From IMG/VR virus record IMGVR_UViG_2609459801_000010: a stretch of DNA of 14,433 nt, one strand, 5' to 3'. The first letter of the stretch is position 1, and every line of letters begins with the position of its first letter. The position numbers were made by a program, and so were the translations under genes. The notes under the pieces are model-generated. The model made no database searches. It was not told the origin of the DNA and saw only the letters and a program-made list of their open reading frames with translations. Shown one piece after another: positions 3,245-14,433 of the stretch. The DNA comes from a virus (Duplodnaviria; Heunggongvirae; Uroviricota; Caudoviricetes).

Positions 3245-3523
3245 TTACCTCCAGATCCGTTGCTGGAATGTGCGGGACGGACGCGCTGGCCGTTCTGAGT
3301 AAGGGAGCCTGACGGAGATTATCCAGTGACGGTAGTCGAGGCTAAGGGCTTTTTTAACCTCGCATCCGCGCCCGCGGTAACACTGAATGAGCCATTCAGC
3401 CTGTTCTTCGGTGCAGGGGTCGTGCTGATACCAGTCAGATTTGAATGCATGAGAACGCCGCCCGTGCCTGCTGGCAGGGGCGGCAGAGTTATCCGAATTG
3501 TAAAATTTGGTATCGTGCGCCAT
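3245..3523 (-). CDS. Hypothetical phage protein (92 aa)
   Basis: ATG at 3523-3521; stop TAA overlaps the GTG start of the downstream gene, suggesting coupling. No recognisable motif; weak SD. Confidence 0.45.
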   Translation of the reverse strand: MAHDTKFYNSDNSAAPASRHGRRSHAFKSDWYQHDPCTEEQAEWLIQCYRGRGCEVKKALSLDYRHWIISVRLPYSERPARPSRTFQQRIWR

Positions 3524-3790
3524 CTGTTTTCTCTGCTGGCGCAGCAGGTGCCAGTTGTTCAGGCTGACGTATGAAGTATAAATAAACTGGCTCCAGTGTA
3601 AAGCCCCACCTTAATGGAATAAAAACCAAACAACAGATTGCTGGGATAAAAATACAACGCTTATTATTAAAAGCGGTTAGATAAATTAAATTTTAATGTT
3701 ATGCAAATCTGCCAGATTAGCATAATATTTCATTTGAAAACCGCTGAAATAACAATCTTATCGGGATTAATCATATTAAGGTGAGTAAAT

Positions 3791-3877
3791 ATGGAAAACA
3801 ACAAATCTGCACATTACGCTCCTTTTTTATCTGTAATACTTTTTGTATTTTGTTGTGTATGGGCGGTATTTTTATAA
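3791..3877 (+). CDS. Candidate small hydrophobic peptide (28 aa), possible membrane peptide or type I toxin-like ORF
   Basis: ATG at 3791 preceded by AAGGTGAG at good spacing; product MENNKSAHYAPFLSVILFVFCCVWAVFL has a polar N-terminus then one hydrophobic helix; a terminator hairpin follows 20 nt downstream. Below the 60-aa track threshold. Confidence 0.25.
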   Translation: MENNKSAHYAPFLSVILFVFCCVWAVFL

Positions 3878-3892
3878 AACACACCCACAAAT

Positions 3893-3927
3893 AAATCAAA
3901 CCCGCTACAGCGGGTTTGATTTATATA
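3893..3927. terminator. Bidirectional intrinsic terminator
   Basis: Perfect inverted repeat AAATCAAACCCGC-taca-GCGGGTTTGATTT; the GC stem CCCGC/GCGGG is followed by a U-rich run in both orientations. Lies just after the peptidase stop (3932) and after the small plus-strand ORF. Confidence 0.6.
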
Positions 3928-3931
3928 GTTG

Positions 3932-6196
3932 TTATACGGAAACTGGCACACGAGCAGGCAATGGATAGTGAGCCCAGTTATTAGCATTTAAAGCTCTTAC
4001 GCCATCAGCATAAACTTGTGTGTTTCCATCTAATGATTTTAAAGTTACTACAATAGTTACAGGTAAAGGCTCCATTAAGGCCGGTTCATTCGCTCTCAAC
4101 GTTGTTTTAGCTTGAAGAGCCCAGTTACCCGAAGTAATTCCTTTATTAAATGCCTTGCGATGAATTTTTACTGGTGACCACTTTCCACCATGCTCAATTT
4201 GAGCTCTCTCATATCCAGATTGACCGTTTTCTCCTTCCATAGGTACTTTTCCTTTTATAGTATTATTCTCAATTAAGCCAAAACTTAGCTCTACGTTCGC
4301 GCGAACATATTCACTGCCGGCATTAGGGTTCAGTGGTGGTGCATATGCAGCAGTAATTACAATCTCACCTTTAAATTTTCCATTTTGAATAAGTGCCGAT
4401 GGTATGGGATAGTTTTCCTTTCTCCACCTCACCCCAGGAACCAAGAATGTTTGGAAAATCAGAGTAAACCTATCATCACTATCATATAAGGTCTCAATAA
4501 CCTCATTAGGAATTCCCGCTCCCAAATAGCGTCTTTCACTTGGCGAGTAATCAGGAGAAGATAATTGAGCGGAATGAATTAATAATGCTTTAATCAATGA
4601 TGGTGAAACATTAAAGTCTGAATTAGTGGCTATTCTCTGCCATGTATGCGCAGCTAAACTTGCCACAATTGGAGCAGCAAAACTAGTACCAAAATTAGAG
4701 CAAAGCCTATTATCTGGCCCTACGACCTTTAAACTGCTTGCTCCTACATTCCAAGGTCTATGAACCCCACCGCCAGCATGGATTATATCTGGCTTTGGAG
4801 TAAATACAGGCCCAGGGCCACGACGAGTATATGGTGTCGGTGTTCCAATTTCACTTAAAGCATCATTAGCTTCCATATGAGAAACTGAACCAACTGTTAG
4901 TGCTCGGACTGACTCTCCAGGAGAGGAAATTAAATCAGCACCTCCAAGCGGATCAGGATTTGGCCATGTACGTATAGGTTCATCTACATAATTACCTGCA
5001 GCAACTACAAACAAAATACCAAATTTATCGCTGAGCCGATCTAACTCCATCGCAAAATCACTAAACATCTGCTCATTACATGGTCCGCCTCCCAAAGATA
5101 AATTCCAGACTTTTATATCTGGTCTTTTATTTACAGCATCTGCTAGCCTCAGAATTAAATCTGATATATAAGATCCATTTTCATCTAAAGCACAAACATC
5201 ATGGATTTTAGATTTTGTATCAGGAATCCATGGATGATTGTCATTTAAAAAATGAGCGCCTGATATCAATGAAGACACCATAGTCCCATGTTCATAACTC
5301 GTATCAGGAGGAATTACGTATGTTTCCCTACTCACTACCCAAGGAGTAATTGTTGCCGCGATGGGGCTTACCCCAGTGTCAAATACAGCAACAATGGGTA
5401 ATTCTTCTGATGGTACGGGAAAGCTATTTGTTTCAATGCCAACAGAATCACTTACACTAACCGGGAATGCTGAATATTTTGGTTCTGGAATTAACGTTCT
5501 TATACCCGGGTAATCAATGAGAATGTCTAATATATATCTATCATTTGGGGATAAATCCATTATCCTTAATAAGGGAAGACCACATTTTGGTCTAATCTCA
5601 TCATATTTAACTCCGTGTTGTTCTAATATAGAAATAACGTTTTCATAGTTGTTGTAAGTTGCATCTTCACCTGTGTACTCAAATAGTCGTACAAGGATGT
5701 TTGATGATTCAAACAAACCATCAGTGCCTCCTGGAACCTTCCTATTCTCATCCCAAGGTTCAATGCGCTCAATCGCGCTTAGGTTAGCCAAAATCGCTTT
5801 AATATTCCGATGTAAAATGACTGACTCTAATACGTCAAAACAGCCGGCATGAGCAGCAACCAACATTTCATCTATTTTGGCATGACCGGCATTTTGCAAT
5901 CCAGCCTCTTGAGCAATTTTGTTCGGCCTATGCGTTTTGGCTATTCCCTGGTCTCTTAATTTGAAAACCAAAGTACCCAAGCTTCCAGGGTACTCTGAAA
6001 GTTTGGATTCTAAATAATGTTTACTGGTTGTTAAATTTCTTACTAGCCCTTGTCTATATTCGGCTGTTACATCAACCAATACCTTTGCCCCACCGCCAGC
6101 GTTTACTATTGCACCCAAGTCACTACTGGAAAAAGGGATTCTTAACATTGGGTTTGTAACTTTTGCGTTACTAAACTGTGTACCCCTTCTGCTCAT
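3932..6196 (-). CDS. Subtilisin-like serine peptidase (peptidase S8 family), 754 aa, no signal peptide; IetS-like
   Basis: Catalytic triad in canonical subtilase order: Asp in VAVFDTGVS, His in YEHGTMVSS, oxyanion Asn in VVAAGNY, Ser in NFGTSFAAPIVAS. Polar N-terminus with no hydrophobic signal sequence. Strong SD (AAGGAG/AGGAG) before the ATG at 6196. About 270 aa N-terminal and 200 aa C-terminal to the catalytic core have no motif I recognise. Confidence 0.85.
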   Translation of the reverse strand: MSRRGTQFSNAKVTNPMLRIPFSSSDLGAIVNAGGGAKVLVDVTAEYRQGLVRNLTTSKHYLESKLSEYPGSLGTLVFKLRDQGIAKTHRPNKIAQEAGLQNAGHAKIDEMLVAAHAGCFDVLESVILHRNIKAILANLSAIERIEPWDENRKVPGGTDGLFESSNILVRLFEYTGEDATYNNYENVISILEQHGVKYDEIRPKCGLPLLRIMDLSPNDRYILDILIDYPGIRTLIPEPKYSAFPVSVSDSVGIETNSFPVPSEELPIVAVFDTGVSPIAATITPWVVSRETYVIPPDTSYEHGTMVSSLISGAHFLNDNHPWIPDTKSKIHDVCALDENGSYISDLILRLADAVNKRPDIKVWNLSLGGGPCNEQMFSDFAMELDRLSDKFGILFVVAAGNYVDEPIRTWPNPDPLGGADLISSPGESVRALTVGSVSHMEANDALSEIGTPTPYTRRGPGPVFTPKPDIIHAGGGVHRPWNVGASSLKVVGPDNRLCSNFGTSFAAPIVASLAAHTWQRIATNSDFNVSPSLIKALLIHSAQLSSPDYSPSERRYLGAGIPNEVIETLYDSDDRFTLIFQTFLVPGVRWRKENYPIPSALIQNGKFKGEIVITAAYAPPLNPNAGSEYVRANVELSFGLIENNTIKGKVPMEGENGQSGYERAQIEHGGKWSPVKIHRKAFNKGITSGNWALQAKTTLRANEPALMEPLPVTIVVTLKSLDGNTQVYADGVRALNANNWAHYPLPARVPVSV

Positions 6197-7325
6197 ATGC
6201 TCCTGACTCCTTCAGAATGTTTGAAATTACTCTTGATGTAAGTTTGTACAAATTAGCAAGAACTCTGATAGAAAATAATTTTTTATCTTTAGAACGTAAC
6301 CAACGAATTTCATCTTCGTAAGTGCTTAAATTTACACCTTCCATAAGCGATTGCGCAAGATACAAACGCCTATACAATTTATGGTGATTTATCACACTTG
6401 CACCTTCAATAACTGCATCCCTACGTGCATCCAAGCTCACCTGTTCAATTATTGCTCCGGATAATCCCTCCGATTTTCTTGATAAATCACTTAAATCTAG
6501 ATCGCTACATATCATATTCTTTAAACGATTTTTCCAAATTAACTCTCTCTGATGTATGTCAGGCAGAGGCATTGGAATTCTGAAGCTAAATCGCCTCCAG
6601 ATTGCAGGATCCAGAAGTTGCTCATGGTTAGTTGAGGCAATAATTACCGTATCCTCTGATGCCGCATCCATATTCTGCAATAGTGAAATGACAACTCGCT
6701 GAAGCTCACCTATATCTCTCTCATTACCTCTTGCTCCAGCTAAAGCATCAAATTCGTCTAAAAAAAGCACTGATGGCCTCTGCATTACATAATCGAAAAC
6801 CTGTCTAAGATTTTTGCTGGTTTGTCCCAATAAACTACTAATCAAAGTATCGCAACGCACTGTAAGAAGTGGAAAATCTAAGCGGGTAGCGATGTACTTA
6901 GATAACATAGTCTTACCTGTTCCTGGCTTTCCATACACGAGCATACGACTCGGCAATGCTGCATCAGCTTTAACAAACTCATCATAACGTTGAACATTAG
7001 TGATAAACTCTTCAACACGGGTACTGATTGCTGCAGGCAGAAAAATCTCTGAACTGTCTAATTTAGGATAACTGACATCAACAGTGTTGAGTCGACTATC
7101 AATATCTACCGGTAATGAGCCCAGAGATATCCCACCTCCAGCCCTTTGAGCTCCTGCCAACGCCTGGGGAGCTCTAAGCAACCTTTCTCTTATCATTCTG
7201 GCTTGCTTGACCTCCCCTTTTTGTTCGAGCTTATCTGCCAGCAACCCAGCATAATTACTAGCCATCGAAGCATTTGCCTTTGTTGCACCTTCAATGATTT
7301 TTAACACTTCTGATAAATAATCCAT
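6171..7325 (-). CDS. AAA+ ATPase (classical AAA clade), 384 aa; IetA-like
   Basis: Walker A LVYGKPGTGKTML, Walker B SVLFLDEFDAL, second region of homology IIASTNHEQLLDPAIWRRFSF. GGGAG SD before the ATG at 7325. 3' end overlaps the peptidase start by 26 nt, implying co-translation. Confidence 0.85.
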   Translation of the reverse strand: MDYLSEVLKIIEGATKANASMASNYAGLLADKLEQKGEVKQARMIRERLLRAPQALAGAQRAGGGISLGSLPVDIDSRLNTVDVSYPKLDSSEIFLPAAISTRVEEFITNVQRYDEFVKADAALPSRMLVYGKPGTGKTMLSKYIATRLDFPLLTVRCDTLISSLLGQTSKNLRQVFDYVMQRPSVLFLDEFDALAGARGNERDIGELQRVVISLLQNMDAASEDTVIIASTNHEQLLDPAIWRRFSFRIPMPLPDIHQRELIWKNRLKNMICSDLDLSDLSRKSEGLSGAIIEQVSLDARRDAVIEGASVINHHKLYRRLYLAQSLMEGVNLSTYEDEIRWLRSKDKKLFSIRVLANLYKLTSRVISNILKESGAYEQKGYTV

Positions 7326-11278: not shown

Positions 11279-11698
11279 ATGGACAAATATGAATTTAGAC
11301 GACAGCAACTCATCAAAATTCGTGATGAGAAATGCGATGGTAAAGCGGTTAACGTGGCCAGAAAGATCGGGCGCGAGCCTTCTTATGTATCAAGAATGTT
11401 GTACCCAGAGGGGAAAAAGGGAAAAAAACGGATCGCTGATGATATGGTGGAGATTATCGAAGAGTCCTTTGGGTTACCCCGGGGATGGATGGATGGTATC
11501 GTTTCATCATCAACGAACACAGCCTCCAGTTATGAAACAAGGGTTCTAACGCCACGACAACGTATTTTTTTAGATCTCTTAGACGAACTGCCAGAAAGTG
11601 AAGCGGATAAATTATTAAAAACTCTTGAAGAGAAAAAACAGTATTACAATATGATCTACGAAGAAATCCGTAAAAAGAAAGCACAAAACGCATCATAG
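11279..11698 (+). CDS. Prophage repressor-like HTH protein (139 aa), RacR/DicA-position
   Basis: Divergent from the cro-like gene; HTH-like AVNVARKIGREPSYVSRML; no SD upstream and a -10 hexamer just before the ATG suggests a leaderless mRNA, as for lambda cI from PRM. Confidence 0.65.
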   Translation: MDKYEFRRQQLIKIRDEKCDGKAVNVARKIGREPSYVSRMLYPEGKKGKKRIADDMVEIIEESFGLPRGWMDGIVSSSTNTASSYETRVLTPRQRIFLDLLDELPESEADKLLKTLEEKKQYYNMIYEEIRKKKAQNAS

Positions 11699-11739: not shown

Positions 11740-11778
11740 TTACCCATGGGTATTTACTTTTTAAATACCTATGGGTAT
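11740..11778. promoter_or_regulatory. OL-like operator pair downstream of the repressor gene
   Basis: Perfect palindrome TACCCATGGGTA (11741-11752) and near-palindrome ATACCTATGGGTAT (11765-11778), 25 bp apart; same TACCCAnnGGTA core as the OR-like copies; positioned to control plus-strand transcription of the ydfA-DicF-dicB operon. Confidence 0.45.
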
Positions 11779-11963
11779 CCTTCTTTTCATACCAACCCAC
11801 CCCGCCCCACAGAATGCAGGGCAATACTTCGAGTTACCAGGCAGTGGTCAGGGGTTAAGTAGCCAGCCCGAGGCGTAAGAACATGACGGCAGGGTTCAAC
11901 TTTAATAACTATGCAGCAGGTTTTTGTTCCGCTACCCCGGCGTTAAGGGGAAATGAGGTCAAC

Positions 11964-12116
11964 ATGGATATGCTCAATCTTGGCAACAACGAATCTCTGG
12001 TATGTGGCGTGTTCCCCAACCAGGACGGCACGTTTACCGCGATGACGTATACCAGAAGCAAAACGTTTAAAACTGAAGCTGGCGCGCGTCGCTGGTTAAC
12101 CAGAAACACTGACTGA
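11964..12116 (+). CDS. ydfA: YdfA-like small protein (50 aa)
   Basis: ATG at 11964 with GAGG SD 6 nt upstream; product MDMLNLGNNESLVCGVFPNQDGTFTAMTYTRSKTFKTEAGARRWLTRNTD; first gene after the operators, as ydfA is in the Qin dicB operon. Identity recalled, not searched. Confidence 0.5.
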   Translation: MDMLNLGNNESLVCGVFPNQDGTFTAMTYTRSKTFKTEAGARRWLTRNTD

Positions 12117-12127
12117 TGAGGTTGACG

Positions 12128-12529
12128 ATGGAATTTAAAGATTTACCAGTACCATTCCAGGAAATGGCATCGAATGTGGTTCGCTCTCAACTGGCGACTC
12201 TTGACCTGAGTACCGTAGAAAAAGAAACCATCGATACTATATCCGGTAACGTGCGTCGTGCCTTTATAGGTCTGTATGAAGAGAAGCGCCTATTCGGCGG
12301 ACAGAATTCGCCTGAAAACAAGAATCAAGCAAATGATGAGAAGCTGAAACACATTATCGCCTTACTTTTGGAAGACGCAAAACGTCTACAGCAACTGGAA
12401 CCAAATGCAGGCACAGAGGCCCGCATTTGGATTGCCATGAAATCACTCAAATGTGAAAGCAGTGATTATTTCAAAACAACAATTAAAACTACTCAACTTT
12501 CGGGAGAGCTACTGAAGAAATTGCCATAA
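12128..12529 (+). CDS. Hypothetical protein (133 aa)
   Basis: ATG at 12128 with GAGG SD 6 nt upstream (an alternative ATG at 12116 overlaps the upstream stop but lacks an SD). Lys/Glu-rich product MEFKDLPVPFQEMASNVVRSQLATLDLSTVEKETIDTISGNVRRAF...; no recognised motif. Confidence 0.5.
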   Translation: MEFKDLPVPFQEMASNVVRSQLATLDLSTVEKETIDTISGNVRRAFIGLYEEKRLFGGQNSPENKNQANDEKLKHIIALLLEDAKRLQQLEPNAGTEARIWIAMKSLKCESSDYFKTTIKTTQLSGELLKKLP

Positions 12530-12767
12530 GAGCATGGTCTTTCTCTTGTTCTGCAAGATGAGCATTAATACCTGGTATGGTTTTTTCAAATTTATCTATC
12601 TGTTGAATAACAACTTCGCGGTATACGTTTGTTTTTGTACCACCAAGCGCAGCCGTTAATGCAGAAAGCATATTTAGTATCATATCAGTGCGATATGAAA
12701 GAATCCTGATAGCTTCATCTTGTTTTTCAATAATAGATTGCAGGGCCTCAATTTGCTTTTTATCCAT
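12489..12767 (-). CDS. Hypothetical protein (92 aa), convergent with and overlapping the 3' end of the 12128-12529 gene
   Basis: ATG at 12767 with very strong SD AGGAGG 5 nt upstream; product MDKKQIEALQSIIEKQDEAIRILSYRTDMILNMLSALTAALGG... (coiled-coil-like then a hydrophobic stretch). No plus-strand ORF of 60 aa or more covers 12530-12806. Confidence 0.45.
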   Translation of the reverse strand: MDKKQIEALQSIIEKQDEAIRILSYRTDMILNMLSALTAALGGTKTNVYREVVIQQIDKFEKTIPGINAHLAEQEKDHALMAISSVALPKVE

Positions 12768-13098
12768 TTCACCCTCCTGAGGGTTGGTAATTAAGGAGTT
12801 CTCCACGGGTCAGGTGGAGTGCGTGCGCCGGACACGGGTGAACATCCGGCACTGACAGTTTACTGAAAGGATATGTCCCTGAAAAGTCAGGGCATAACGC
12901 GAAAGCGCACGGCGAAATTGGTCTCTCTGTACGGTGTCGTTAAATTTAGTTCGACCGTGCGCTTCCGGTTGTGGCAATCCGCGAAATGGTGCGGCGGTAA
13001 GTATGGCGGGGTTATTCCTTCCCCCGTTGAGGACACCGGGTTGTCAGGTTGACCATACGCTTAAGTGACAACCCCGCTGCAACGCCCTCTGTTATCAA

Positions 13099-13151
13099 TT
13101 TTCTGGTGACGTTTGGCGGTATCAGTTTTACTCCGTGACTGCTCTGCCGCC
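13099..13151 (+). ncRNA. dicF: DicF small regulatory RNA (ftsZ-targeting antisense sRNA)
   Basis: TTTCTGGTGACGTTTGGCGGTATCAGTTTTACTCCGTGACTGCTCTGCCGCCC matches the DicF sequence as I recall it; a T-run follows after the GGCGG...CCGCC stem; lies just upstream of dicB as in the Qin dic operon. Ends are approximate because DicF is processed. Confidence 0.75.
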
Positions 13152-13326
13152 CTTTTTAAAGTGAATTTTGTGATGTGGTGAATGCGGCTGAGCGCACGCG
13201 GAACAGTTAAAACCAAAAACAGTGTTATGGGTGGATTCTCTGTATCCGGCGTTAATTGTTAACTGGTTAACGTCACCTGGAGGCACCAGGCACCGCATCA
13301 CAAAATTCATTGTTGAGGACGCGATA

Positions 13327-13515
13327 ATGGAAACGTTATTACCAAACGTTAATACGTCTGAAGGTTGTTTTGAAATTGGTGTCACTATCAGTAACCCAGT
13401 ATTTACTGAAGATGCCATTAACAAGAGAAAACACGAACGGGAGCTATTAAATAAAATATGCATTCTTTCAATGCTGGCCCGTTTACGTCCGATACAAAAA
13501 GGATGCTGGCAATGA
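13327..13515 (+). CDS. dicB: Cell division inhibitor DicB (62 aa)
   Basis: Product METLLPNVNTSEGCFEIGVTISNPVFTEDAINKRKHERELLNKICILSMLARLRPIQKGCWQ closely resembles E. coli DicB; GAGGA SD 8 nt upstream; stop overlaps the next start (ATGA). Confidence 0.85.
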   Translation: METLLPNVNTSEGCFEIGVTISNPVFTEDAINKRKHERELLNKICILSMLARLRPIQKGCWQ

Positions 13516-13795: not shown

Positions 13796-13977
13796 ATGAG
13801 TAAAGTCTTTATTTGCGCCGCCATTCCGGACGAACAGGCAATAAAGGAAGAAGGTGCCGTCGCTGTAGCCACTGCCATTGAAGCCGGTGATGAACGTCGC
13901 GCCCGCGCAAAATTTCACTGGCAATTCCTGGAACATTATCCGGCTGCTCAGGACTGCGCTTATAAATTTCTTGTCTG
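13796..13977 (+). pseudogene. ydfE-like gene, 5' fragment only (first 60 codons), truncated by IS1 insertion
   Basis: ATG at 13796 with GAGG SD; MSKVFICAAIPDEQAIKEEGAVAVATAIEAGDERRARAKFHWQFLEHYPAAQDCAYKFLV then the frame runs into the IS1 inverted repeat (last codons VMTPTY and stop come from IS1). Confidence 0.55.
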
Positions 13978-14433
13978 GGTAATGACTCCAACTTATTGAT
14001 AGTGTTTTATGTTCAGATAATGCCCGATGACTTTGTCATGCAGCTCCACCGATTTTGAGAACGACAGCGACTTCCGTCCCAGCCGTGCCAGGTGCTGCCT
14101 CAGATTCAGGTTATGCCGCTCAATTCGCTGCGTATATCGCTTGCTGATTACGTGCAGCTTTCCCTTCAGGCGGGATTCATACAGCGGCCAGCCATCCGTC
14201 ATCCATATCACCACGTCAAAGGGTGACAGCAGGCTCATAAGACGCCCCAGCGTCGCCATAGTGCGTTCACCGAATACGTGCGCAACAACCGTCTTCCGGA
14301 GCCTGTCATACGCGTAAAACAGCCAGCGCTGGCGCGATTTAGCCCCGACATAGCCCCACTGTTCGTCCATTTCCGCGCAGACGATGACGTCACTGCCCGG
14401 CTGTATGCGCGAGGTTACCGACTGCGGCCTGAG
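13978..14433 (-). mobile_element. IS1 insertion sequence, partial (one end plus part of the transposase region; continues beyond window end)
   Basis: Terminal inverted repeat GGTAATGACTCCAACTTATTGATAGTG starts at 13978; the encoded minus-strand protein is identical in pattern to IS1 InsB. Confidence 0.9.
13993..14433 (-). CDS. insB: IS1 transposase InsB (C-terminal part; 5' end beyond window)
   Basis: ...[128 protein letters not shown]; frame is open upstream to the window edge (track shows only the part from the internal Met at 14370). Confidence 0.9.

Follow-up and report, generated by a model that had tools for sequence, protein, structure and literature searches.

In the Rac prophage, the gene order racR-ydaG-ydaF(DUF1391)-sieB-kilS-kilR places sieB antisense within a repressor-controlled early-left operon, just after and convergent with the DUF1391 gene, and sieB is followed by kilS, a DicF-like small RNA (sRNA), and kilR, a division inhibitor. 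In the e14 prophage, ymfI is convergent with ymfJ, with which it shares 63 bp, and both sieB-ydaF and ymfI-ymfJ are listed as convergent excludons on the basis of RNA sequencing coverage in K-12 (PMC12288877). Late in SOS, YmfJ increases as transcript and as protein, with little change in ymfI (PMC11002266), and in K-12 DicA represses dicBp (10.1101/2023.04.14.536235). Here we describe a related arrangement in a 14,433-nt stretch of tailed-phage DNA (IMG/VR record IMGVR_UViG_2609459801_000010; hereafter, the window), in which a plus-strand open reading frame (ORF) of 133 amino acids (aa), ORF A, and a minus-strand ORF of 92 aa, ORF B, converge between a ydfA-type DUF1391 gene and DicF. Both are real genes, ORF A being a mosaic and ORF B one of several unrelated cargos that lie behind a conserved leader.

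The locus parallels that of Rac, in that ORF B, like sieB, is antisense in the operon, just after and convergent with the DUF1391 gene, and is followed by DicF and dicB as sieB is by kilS and kilR. We suggest, with a probability of roughly 60%, that ORF B is a lysogen-expressed, moron-type gene that runs convergently against a repressor-controlled dicBF-type operon. ORF A and ORF B would then fill, at this locus, a variable segment that recurs in the early-left (dicB/pL-type) operon of lambdoid prophages of the Qin/Rac type, a segment bounded on the left by the conserved MEFKDLP N-domain of ORF A and on the right by a structured leader on the opposite strand (Table 1). Such a recurring antisense cargo slot with a shared leader is a variation on the familiar theme of prophage morons and hotspots.

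A first-pass annotation, made from the letters of this DNA, had proposed the convergent pair with a 41-bp 3' overlap and good Shine-Dalgarno sequences, while allowing that one of the two ORFs might be spurious. The overlap is borne out by the ORF listing and by RefSeq, and GAGG (12118-12121, 6 nt ahead of the ATG at 12128) and AGGAGG (5 nt ahead of the ATG at 12767) stand at fitting distances before ORF A and ORF B, respectively. The outer ends that were given for the pair, 12116 and 12806, are those of the longest possible frames (12116-12529, giving 137 aa if read from its first ATG; 12489-12806, giving 105 aa if a GTG is taken as the start). In identical DNA of many strains, the RefSeq/PGAP annotation has the 133-aa and 92-aa forms (WP_001339605 and WP_000358771), and homologues support these starts, beginning at MEFKDLP for ORF A and with M[DHY] for ORF B, whose longer N-terminal extension is unconserved. 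ORF A matches phrog_1363 (9.5e-45 over residues 1-131) and ORF B phrog_18692 (5.9e-63 over residues 1-92), both of them families of unknown function. Both frames remain open in homologues, and, measured against those of 62–74% amino acid identity (dS 0.6-1.6), the ratio of nonsynonymous to synonymous substitution (dN/dS) is 0.08-0.24 for ORF B, at dS 0.7-0.9, and 0.19-0.49 for the C-terminal module (C-module) of ORF A. As ORF B is under purifying selection, it must be expressed. AT-rich overlapping antisense frames may stay open by chance, and a known domain is found in neither ORF, so one of them could be thought a chance frame antisense to the other, but the shared stretch is just 41 bp, and each ORF has its own length-conserved homologues, its own ribosome-binding site (RBS), a low dN/dS, and a full-length PHROG match. 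A chance frame is thus already contradicted, and we give it next to no weight; on this comparative evidence both ORFs are real genes.

The homology and structure searches that had been proposed for both products yielded PHROG families and no known domain or fold. Domain searches of Pfam, NCBIfam, and PADLOC with both ORFs gave nothing above cutoff, profile searches of PDB sequences gave no relatives, and Foldseek comparison with viral and PDB libraries gave no match at E<=0.001, the sole near match being that of a 52-aa uncharacterised protein of phage phi191 to the ORF A N-domain, above E 0.001. A literature search for the protein accessions found nothing. The AlphaFold models of ORF B and ORF A are helical and of moderate or low confidence (predicted local distance difference test, pLDDT, 70 and 59 for the two). 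That of ORF B, at pLDDT 70, has three helices, and its product is predicted to be a soluble three-helix protein; it is acidic, and its maximum 19-residue hydropathy of 0.93 indicates no membrane span.

ORF A itself is, by its alignments, a mosaic member of a very common early-operon family. Its residues 1-63 align by BLASTP with 124-aa relatives, its residues 69-108 align with residues 2-41 of e14 YmfJ (75% identity, 2e-19), and each half is also matched by its own separate PHROG. The YmfJ match is confined to those 40 residues and does not extend over the whole of either protein. The N-domain is present in approximately 1,860 of 5,426 complete E. coli genomes, joined to many different C-modules, while the full-length 133-aa form is found in only 168; ORF A occurs without ORF B in approximately 40 genomes. 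The last 12 codons and the stop codon of ORF A are antisense to ORF B. Within its most conserved motif, EPNAGTEARIW, an 8-bp inverted repeat (CCAAATGC ... GCATTTGG) lies at 12401-12430, and the single change in this repeat in a Salmonella locus (L008) keeps the pairing, as G.U, on the minus strand only; the repeat may form a structure at the 3' end of the cargo transcript, or it may be coincidental.

The K-12 Qin prophage aligns with this DNA at 11926-12095 (ydfA) and 12782-13400 and nowhere else, which puts ORF A and ORF B in the place of ydfB and ydfC, between ydfA and the pre-DicF region, as the first-pass annotation had proposed. Unlike the present pair, ydfB and ydfC are both on the plus strand, and they share no similarity with ORF A or ORF B; a candidate homology of ORF A to ydfB or ydfC was rejected accordingly. 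In O157, a 124-aa relative of ORF A with another C-terminus is located after ydfB and ydfC, showing that the MEFKDLP family is an ordinary member of the operon rather than an alternative to ydfB/ydfC, and that the two pairs are not simple alleles. The region is AT-richer than its surroundings, as had been noted, with a G+C fraction of 0.375-0.395 over 12300-12800 vs 0.49-0.555 in both flanks.

ORF B is much rarer than the N-domain of its neighbour, being present in 127 of the 5,426 complete genomes. The E. coli copies are at least 99% identical together with the adjoining ORF A C-module, and this looks like one recently spread block. Homologues of the same length and 71–74% identity occur in Salmonella and in a metagenome contig, and a profile search of 1.8 billion representative proteins added relatives of 90-93 aa and 33–44% identity. 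The family comprises 13-45 clusters, all from E. coli, Salmonella, or Klebsiella; the figure of 45 comes from the wider profile, and all of these are labelled ‘hypothetical’. Its members always adjoin the immunity region, where they run convergently toward the early operon, a cI-type S24 repressor, or a helix-turn-helix (HTH) protein. In Rac-like prophages of Salmonella, ORF B faces a free-standing 71-aa YmfJ-type gene; at another Salmonella locus a relative with a replaced C-terminus lies directly beside the repressor gene; and more distant relatives are convergent to cI-type S24 repressors or adjoin an integrase. Opposite a 91-aa relative (hhalign probability 96%) lies another ORF A C-module.

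The identical 41-bp overlap is found in Salmonella (L008 and L013), and also at L014, there between a 44%-identical relative of ORF B and an unrelated 214-aa HTH protein. The recurrence has a simple source, because homology between the loci starts at the ORF B stop codon, and any gene that enters opposite ORF B runs to the first antisense stop, which lies at a conserved Leu codon of ORF B. A toxin-antitoxin-like pair, one of the roles first imagined for these genes, is unlikely. Type II systems would be co-directional and co-transcribed, and these genes are convergent with overlapping 3' ends; co-occurrence is not obligate, as ORF B relatives stand without an overlapping partner (L011, L015, L146, and L147) or with other partners; and the Pfam, NCBIfam, and PADLOC searches show no toxin or antitoxin domain, a RelB-like match reaching 15.9 bits vs a cutoff of 50.

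A broader version of this idea is that ORF A, through its C-module, and ORF B are cognate antagonists, toxin and antidote or effector and immunity protein, with ORF B made in the lysogen to neutralise a leaky, host-harming early protein. DicB and DicF, the neighbouring products of the operon, are known to be toxic, and the linkage in E. coli is tight, 125 of the 127 ORF B copies adjoining the ORF A C-module. The 71-aa YmfJ-like gene and ORF B have also been kept together in Salmonella at 62–74% identity with the same overlap, and C-modules change with cargo type, the zinc-ribbon-like cargo and its ‘ADFTYS...WFNPV’ module being an example. Physical adjacency by itself accounts for the linkage, however, and the genes converge instead of lying in one co-transcribed unit and have none of the toxin, antitoxin, or defence domains sought in Pfam, NCBIfam, and PADLOC. 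ORF B relatives exist without an overlapping partner, with an HTH protein, or opposite another module, and ORF A exists without ORF B in the approximately 40 genomes noted above. The YmfJ-type module, in turn, faces at least four unrelated antisense genes, namely ORF B, the GhoS-like 94-aa ORF described below, a 74-aa ORF, and YmfI in e14, which counts against a specific protein partnership. We therefore consider cognate antagonists very unlikely, and the two genes do not form a dedicated system of their own. A more general form, in which they would represent one allele of a polymorphic, so far undescribed module of lambdoid prophages that spans both strands, with one conserved structured leader driving all of the exchangeable antisense genes, with C-module and antisense cargo as matched lytic and lysogenic antagonists (effector/immunity or exclusion/anti-exclusion) and with convergent transcription enforcing mutually exclusive expression, seems to us quite unlikely.

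The principal finding lies at the right-hand side of the slot. On the minus strand, the sequence upstream of ORF B is arranged in the order -10-like hexamer, hairpin P1, hairpin P2, AACUCC box, RBS, and ATG. An exact-pattern scan for the invariant core of P1, TGCCGGAT-N8-GTGTCCGGCGCAC, returned 8 loci from a set with a single genome for each species, along with over 120 viral contigs, for 141 copies in total. Sixty-six of these precede an ORF, and sequence conservation ends exactly at its ATG. The ORFs form eleven sequence groups of 32-105 aa (mostly 57-105), which two merges reduce to nine unrelated families, since 91-aa relatives join the ORF B family and the 61- and 80-aa zinc-ribbon-like ORFs both belong to phrog_10133. 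PHROG families of unknown function match seven of the nine, and the search, which covered all but the 32-aa ORF, gave no match for the 57-aa ORF. The sole cargo to touch a known family is a 94-aa ORF that scores 21.2 bits against GhoS, for which the cutoff is 21. There are two leader types, which differ wholly in P2 sequence, form the helix nonetheless, and each precede several different cargos; in other copies helices of different sequence (GACCACACG/CGUGUUGGUC; UUCCCAAC/GUUGGGAA) hold the place of P2. All 29 distinct leaders share the GGAG of the RBS.

Opposite the cargo there is usually a member of the MEFKDLP family or a YmfJ-type gene, whose 3' end extends 0-49 nt into the cargo, a length characteristic of each cargo. 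The zinc-ribbon-like cargo, for example, lies opposite the ‘ADFTYS...WFNPV’ module, which occurs in two diverged versions. Because the C-terminal part of the facing gene changes with the cargo, the exchanged unit is the ORF A C-module plus the antisense cargo, flanked, as the alignments indicate, by a constant ORF A N-domain and a constant leader. The earlier proposal of an accessory insertion therefore holds insofar as this is a variable accessory segment of a dicB-type operon, and fails as to a single inserted pair, as ORF A is a mosaic and the partners of ORF B vary.

The remaining 75 leader copies lack an ORF. In some of them ydfC adjoins the leader on the opposite strand (K-12 and the isolated phages Tritos and 640R1), and in the others a relative of ORF A adjoins a truncated P2 (O157). 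These copies raise the alternative that the hairpin region acts on the plus strand, within the dicBF precursor, for example in RNase processing or in 3'-end protection ahead of DicF, and that minus-strand ORFs merely landed alongside, ORF B being silent or weakly expressed. DicF is cut from a long operon transcript, the region is 91–95% conserved without a minus-strand ORF in K-12 Qin, O157, Tritos, and 640R1, and plus-strand RNA can also form the core 6-bp GC stems. A plus-strand role does not explain why conservation spans the anti-Shine-Dalgarno-like box and the RBS up to the ATG of unrelated cargos, nor why -10-like hexamers recur across unrelated upstream contexts, and silence of ORF B is at odds with the purifying selection on it. 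Folding also points the other way. The mean fold z-score is -2.6 on the minus strand vs -0.96 on the plus and is lower on the minus strand in 27 of the 29 distinct leaders; the last two pairs of P1 are G.U, which is possible on the minus strand only; and the diverged copy L015 preserves P1 through C-to-U transitions, that is, wobble changes that again fit only the minus strand. At L146, P1 has GCCGGG/CCCGGC in place of GCCGGA/UCCGGC, a compensatory variant. We thus favour, from these sequence features, use of the leader on the minus strand, and regard a role confined to the plus strand as unlikely.

Transcription of ORF B is predicted to start near 12851, at the foot of P1, from the putative sigma-70 promoter given in Table 1. 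A -10-like hexamer 3-8 nt upstream of P1 is present in 18 of 26 distinct upstream contexts vs a background of 9.9%. In the reading that we prefer, of a lysogen-expressed gene set against the operon, ORF B, one of at least nine unrelated cargo families placed exactly at the ATG behind the leader, would be transcribed independently in the lysogen, in the position and orientation of sieB in Rac and ymfI in e14. ORF A would be read from the repressor-controlled operon promoter and so be made only after derepression, as we infer from DicA and dicBp of K-12 and from the late appearance of YmfJ in SOS, which fits ORF A as an early gene under repressor control. The first-pass annotation had noted that the minus-strand gene would be transcribed against the operon, and ORF B is indeed real and convergent. 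A scan found no terminator-like site between ORF B and ORF A/ydfA, the nearest lying at 11741-11777, and with 41 bp shared the two units should interfere as an excludon. When the operon is silent, transcription of ORF B would run into ORF A and ydfA; upon induction, transcription toward DicF and DicB would cross ORF B in antisense and silence it.

Lysogen-expressed prophage genes near the immunity region often prove to be exclusion or defence factors. Our best guess is that the ORF B protein is a lysogen-expressed exclusion or host-modulating factor, and an exclusion role, which the first reading of this DNA had also raised, is plausible by positional likeness to Rac sieB. The slot can be recognised from sequence, and in E. 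coli, Salmonella, and their relatives it collects small uncharacterised proteins of nine unrelated families, antisense to the operon for the division inhibitors DicF and DicB; its cargos thus form a candidate list for phage exclusion or host control, and the slot is a natural system for learning how convergent transcription separates lysogenic from lytic expression.

Several observations count against this reading. The predicted ORF B promoter is weak, matching 8 of 12 consensus positions and going unlisted by a stricter scan. The leader copies are mutually related and P1 was fixed by the search pattern, which limits the evidence from covariation, and, as the leader is retained where the cargo is missing (K-12 Qin, O157), its role may lie additionally, or even entirely, with the plus-strand dicBF transcript. 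The near-constant company of ORF B and the ORF A C-module in E. coli makes a functional link possible. A tblastn search with ORF B of 50,697 deposited phage records gave no match. The analogy with SieB is one of position, as ORF B matched no Pfam family at E<=1 and gave no BLASTP hit to Rac SieB, and it lacks the hydrophobic membrane segment of that protein. SieB has 162 aa, is basic, and contains a membrane segment with a hydropathy of 2.19, whereas ORF B has 92 aa, is acidic, and reaches 0.93; the region upstream of Rac sieB, moreover, is without the P1/P2 leader.

The e14 pair is likewise similar in layout and different in sequence. Beyond the shared module YmfJ and ORF A differ, the P1 and P2 hairpins are missing from the e14 copy, and YmfI was rejected as a relative of ORF B (hhalign probability 0.15%), though the region upstream of ymfI resembles the promoter region of leader copy L018. 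With morons and hotspots, such as the lambda rexAB/sieB region and those of P2 and P4, ORF B shares presence or absence between otherwise similar prophages, a base composition deviating from the flanks (G+C 0.38-0.40 vs 0.49-0.55), and an immunity-region neighbourhood; the predicted promoter of its own may be a further likeness. It differs from them in lacking its own terminator and in being embedded antisense in an operon with a 3' overlap, and its slot differs in the shared structured leader that ends at the start codon of many unrelated small ORFs and in the swapping of the partner gene's C-terminus along with the cargo.

Three further ideas about the leader were tried and rejected. Pairing of DicF with the ORF B leader gave a duplex of -27.2 kcal/mol, weaker than the mean of -31.9 for shuffled DicF. 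Sequestration of the RBS by the AACUCC box is unsupported, the computed accessibility of the site being 0.53 vs 0.27 in shuffled leaders; one compensatory pair does exist (UA in 16, AU in 13). The prophage sRNAs Pas, AgvB, and STnc100 are located elsewhere, in the late/Q region, and the leader is therefore not one of them. An Rfam search of 12782-13100 matched no family, and the leader, if proven to be a regulatory RNA, would be a new one; no conserved small ORF or reading frame was found in the same interval. The start of P1 (TGCCGGATG...) may resemble the E. coli repetitive extragenic palindromic element (GCCGGATG...ATCCGGC), from which the loop and the 3' arm differ.

Individual leader copies show other features. 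In a Salmonella prophage (L011), a 640-bp insertion at 3273-3916, corresponding approximately to 12850-12880 of the window, lies just upstream of P1 and contains a 119-aa ORF oriented like ORF B, which suggests a second variable point in the region. A motif, CACCAC-N-TCAGGC-N-GGTGGTAT..T, forms a hairpin overlapping an extended -10-like TGGTAT upstream of ymfI (L004, K-12 e14, 5430-5470), occurs also upstream of the distant ORF B relatives at L146 and L147, and in L018 immediately precedes P1; cargo of this kind may have in it an alternative promoter module. L018, labelled Chryseobacterium sp., and L024, a metagenome-assembled genome labelled Collinsella sp., are assigned to unrelated phyla yet contain a near-identical enterobacterial prophage leader, most likely through contamination or mis-binning. 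The match in Chitinophaga (L019) does not go beyond the 21 bases that the search pattern fixes and seems to be due to chance.

Table 1. Features of the ORF A/ORF B locus and its surroundings, in window coordinates.
Feature	Position	Strand	Basis and remarks
Cro-like gene		-	First in local order, before the repressor gene
Repressor gene, 139 aa, DicA/CI position	11279..11698	+	phrog_5736, transcriptional regulator, 6.4e-70
Terminator-like hairpin between repressor gene and operon	11741..11777		Consensus scan; 16-bp stem, then T-run on plus strand
ydfA/ydaF-type DUF1391 gene, first gene of operon	11964..12116	+	Pfam DUF1391 4.7e-28; PGAP; translation
ORF A, 133 aa, mosaic early-operon gene	12128..12529	+	PGAP WP_001339605; phrog_1363
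ORF A N-domain, aa 1-~60	12128-~12307	+	Motif MEFKDLP...GLYEEK
ORF A YmfJ-type module, aa 69-108	12332-12451	+	BLASTP to e14 YmfJ
3' overlap of ORF A and ORF B, 41 bp	12489..12529		Coordinates
ORF B, 92 aa, antisense ‘cargo’ gene	12489..12767	-	PGAP WP_000358771; phrog_18692
RBS of ORF B, AGGAGG	12773..12778	-	Sequence; 5 nt ahead of ATG 12767
GC-rich conserved non-coding region, slot to DicF	12782..13100		Right border of variable segment
Leader hairpin P2 (CUCCAC / GUGGAG)	12801..12819	-	RNAfold
Leader hairpin P1 (GCCGGAUG / UGUCCGGC)	12827..12850	-	Two G.U pairs on minus strand; core invariant in all loci
Predicted sigma-70 promoter of ORF B	12857..12885	-	-35 TTTTCA 12885-12880; 17-nt spacer; -10 TAAACT 12862-12857
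DicF sRNA	13101..13152	+	Rfam RF00039, 76.7 bits
dicB, 62 aa	13327..13515	+	PGAP annotation; translation

The window comes from a Qin/Rac-type lambdoid prophage of E. coli that is integrated beside ompW; across 11800-13100, identity is 100% with several complete genomes and 99.6% with enteropathogenic E. coli E2348/69. The repressor gene reads in the same direction as the operon, and its product (WP_000362153) is also annotated in O157 prophages with other slot content; comparison of prophages shows identical repressor and Cro proteins together with differing slot content. On the minus-strand side of the hairpin at 11741..11777, AATTTTT comes next, and with T-runs at both sides the hairpin may act bidirectionally. 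Downstream of dicB are a DUF1482 gene and then an exonuclease gene.

The non-coding region that forms the right border is 95% identical to the ydfC-dicF spacer of K-12 Qin and is found in 64 phage records. Its portion at 12979-13076 is 76–81% identical to phages P1 and P7, and P1 records label the counterpart a ‘dicF-like region’, so the conserved spacer is itself modular and common to phages beyond the lambdoid ones. Directly 3' of DicF, a partial, sub-threshold match to the STnc100 sRNA family (13154-13300, plus strand; 34.4 bits vs a gathering score of 47) begins and extends into the 5' region of dicB.

Elsewhere in the window, two large minus-strand ORFs of 754 and 384 aa (3932-7325) lie between the replication genes and the DUF968/RusA/Q genes. 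In another strain with identical DNA they are annotated as IteS, an S8 peptidase, and IteA, an ATPase, which make up an anti-phage system; this prophage thus has a second accessory insertion. An IS1 transposase fragment (13993-14370, minus strand; Pfam DDE_Tnp_IS1, 2.9e-74) comes after a 67-aa stub of the exonuclease gene (13796-13999), and as the closest complete genomes have that gene intact, at 2.5 kb, the IS1 insertion apparently took place in this strain.

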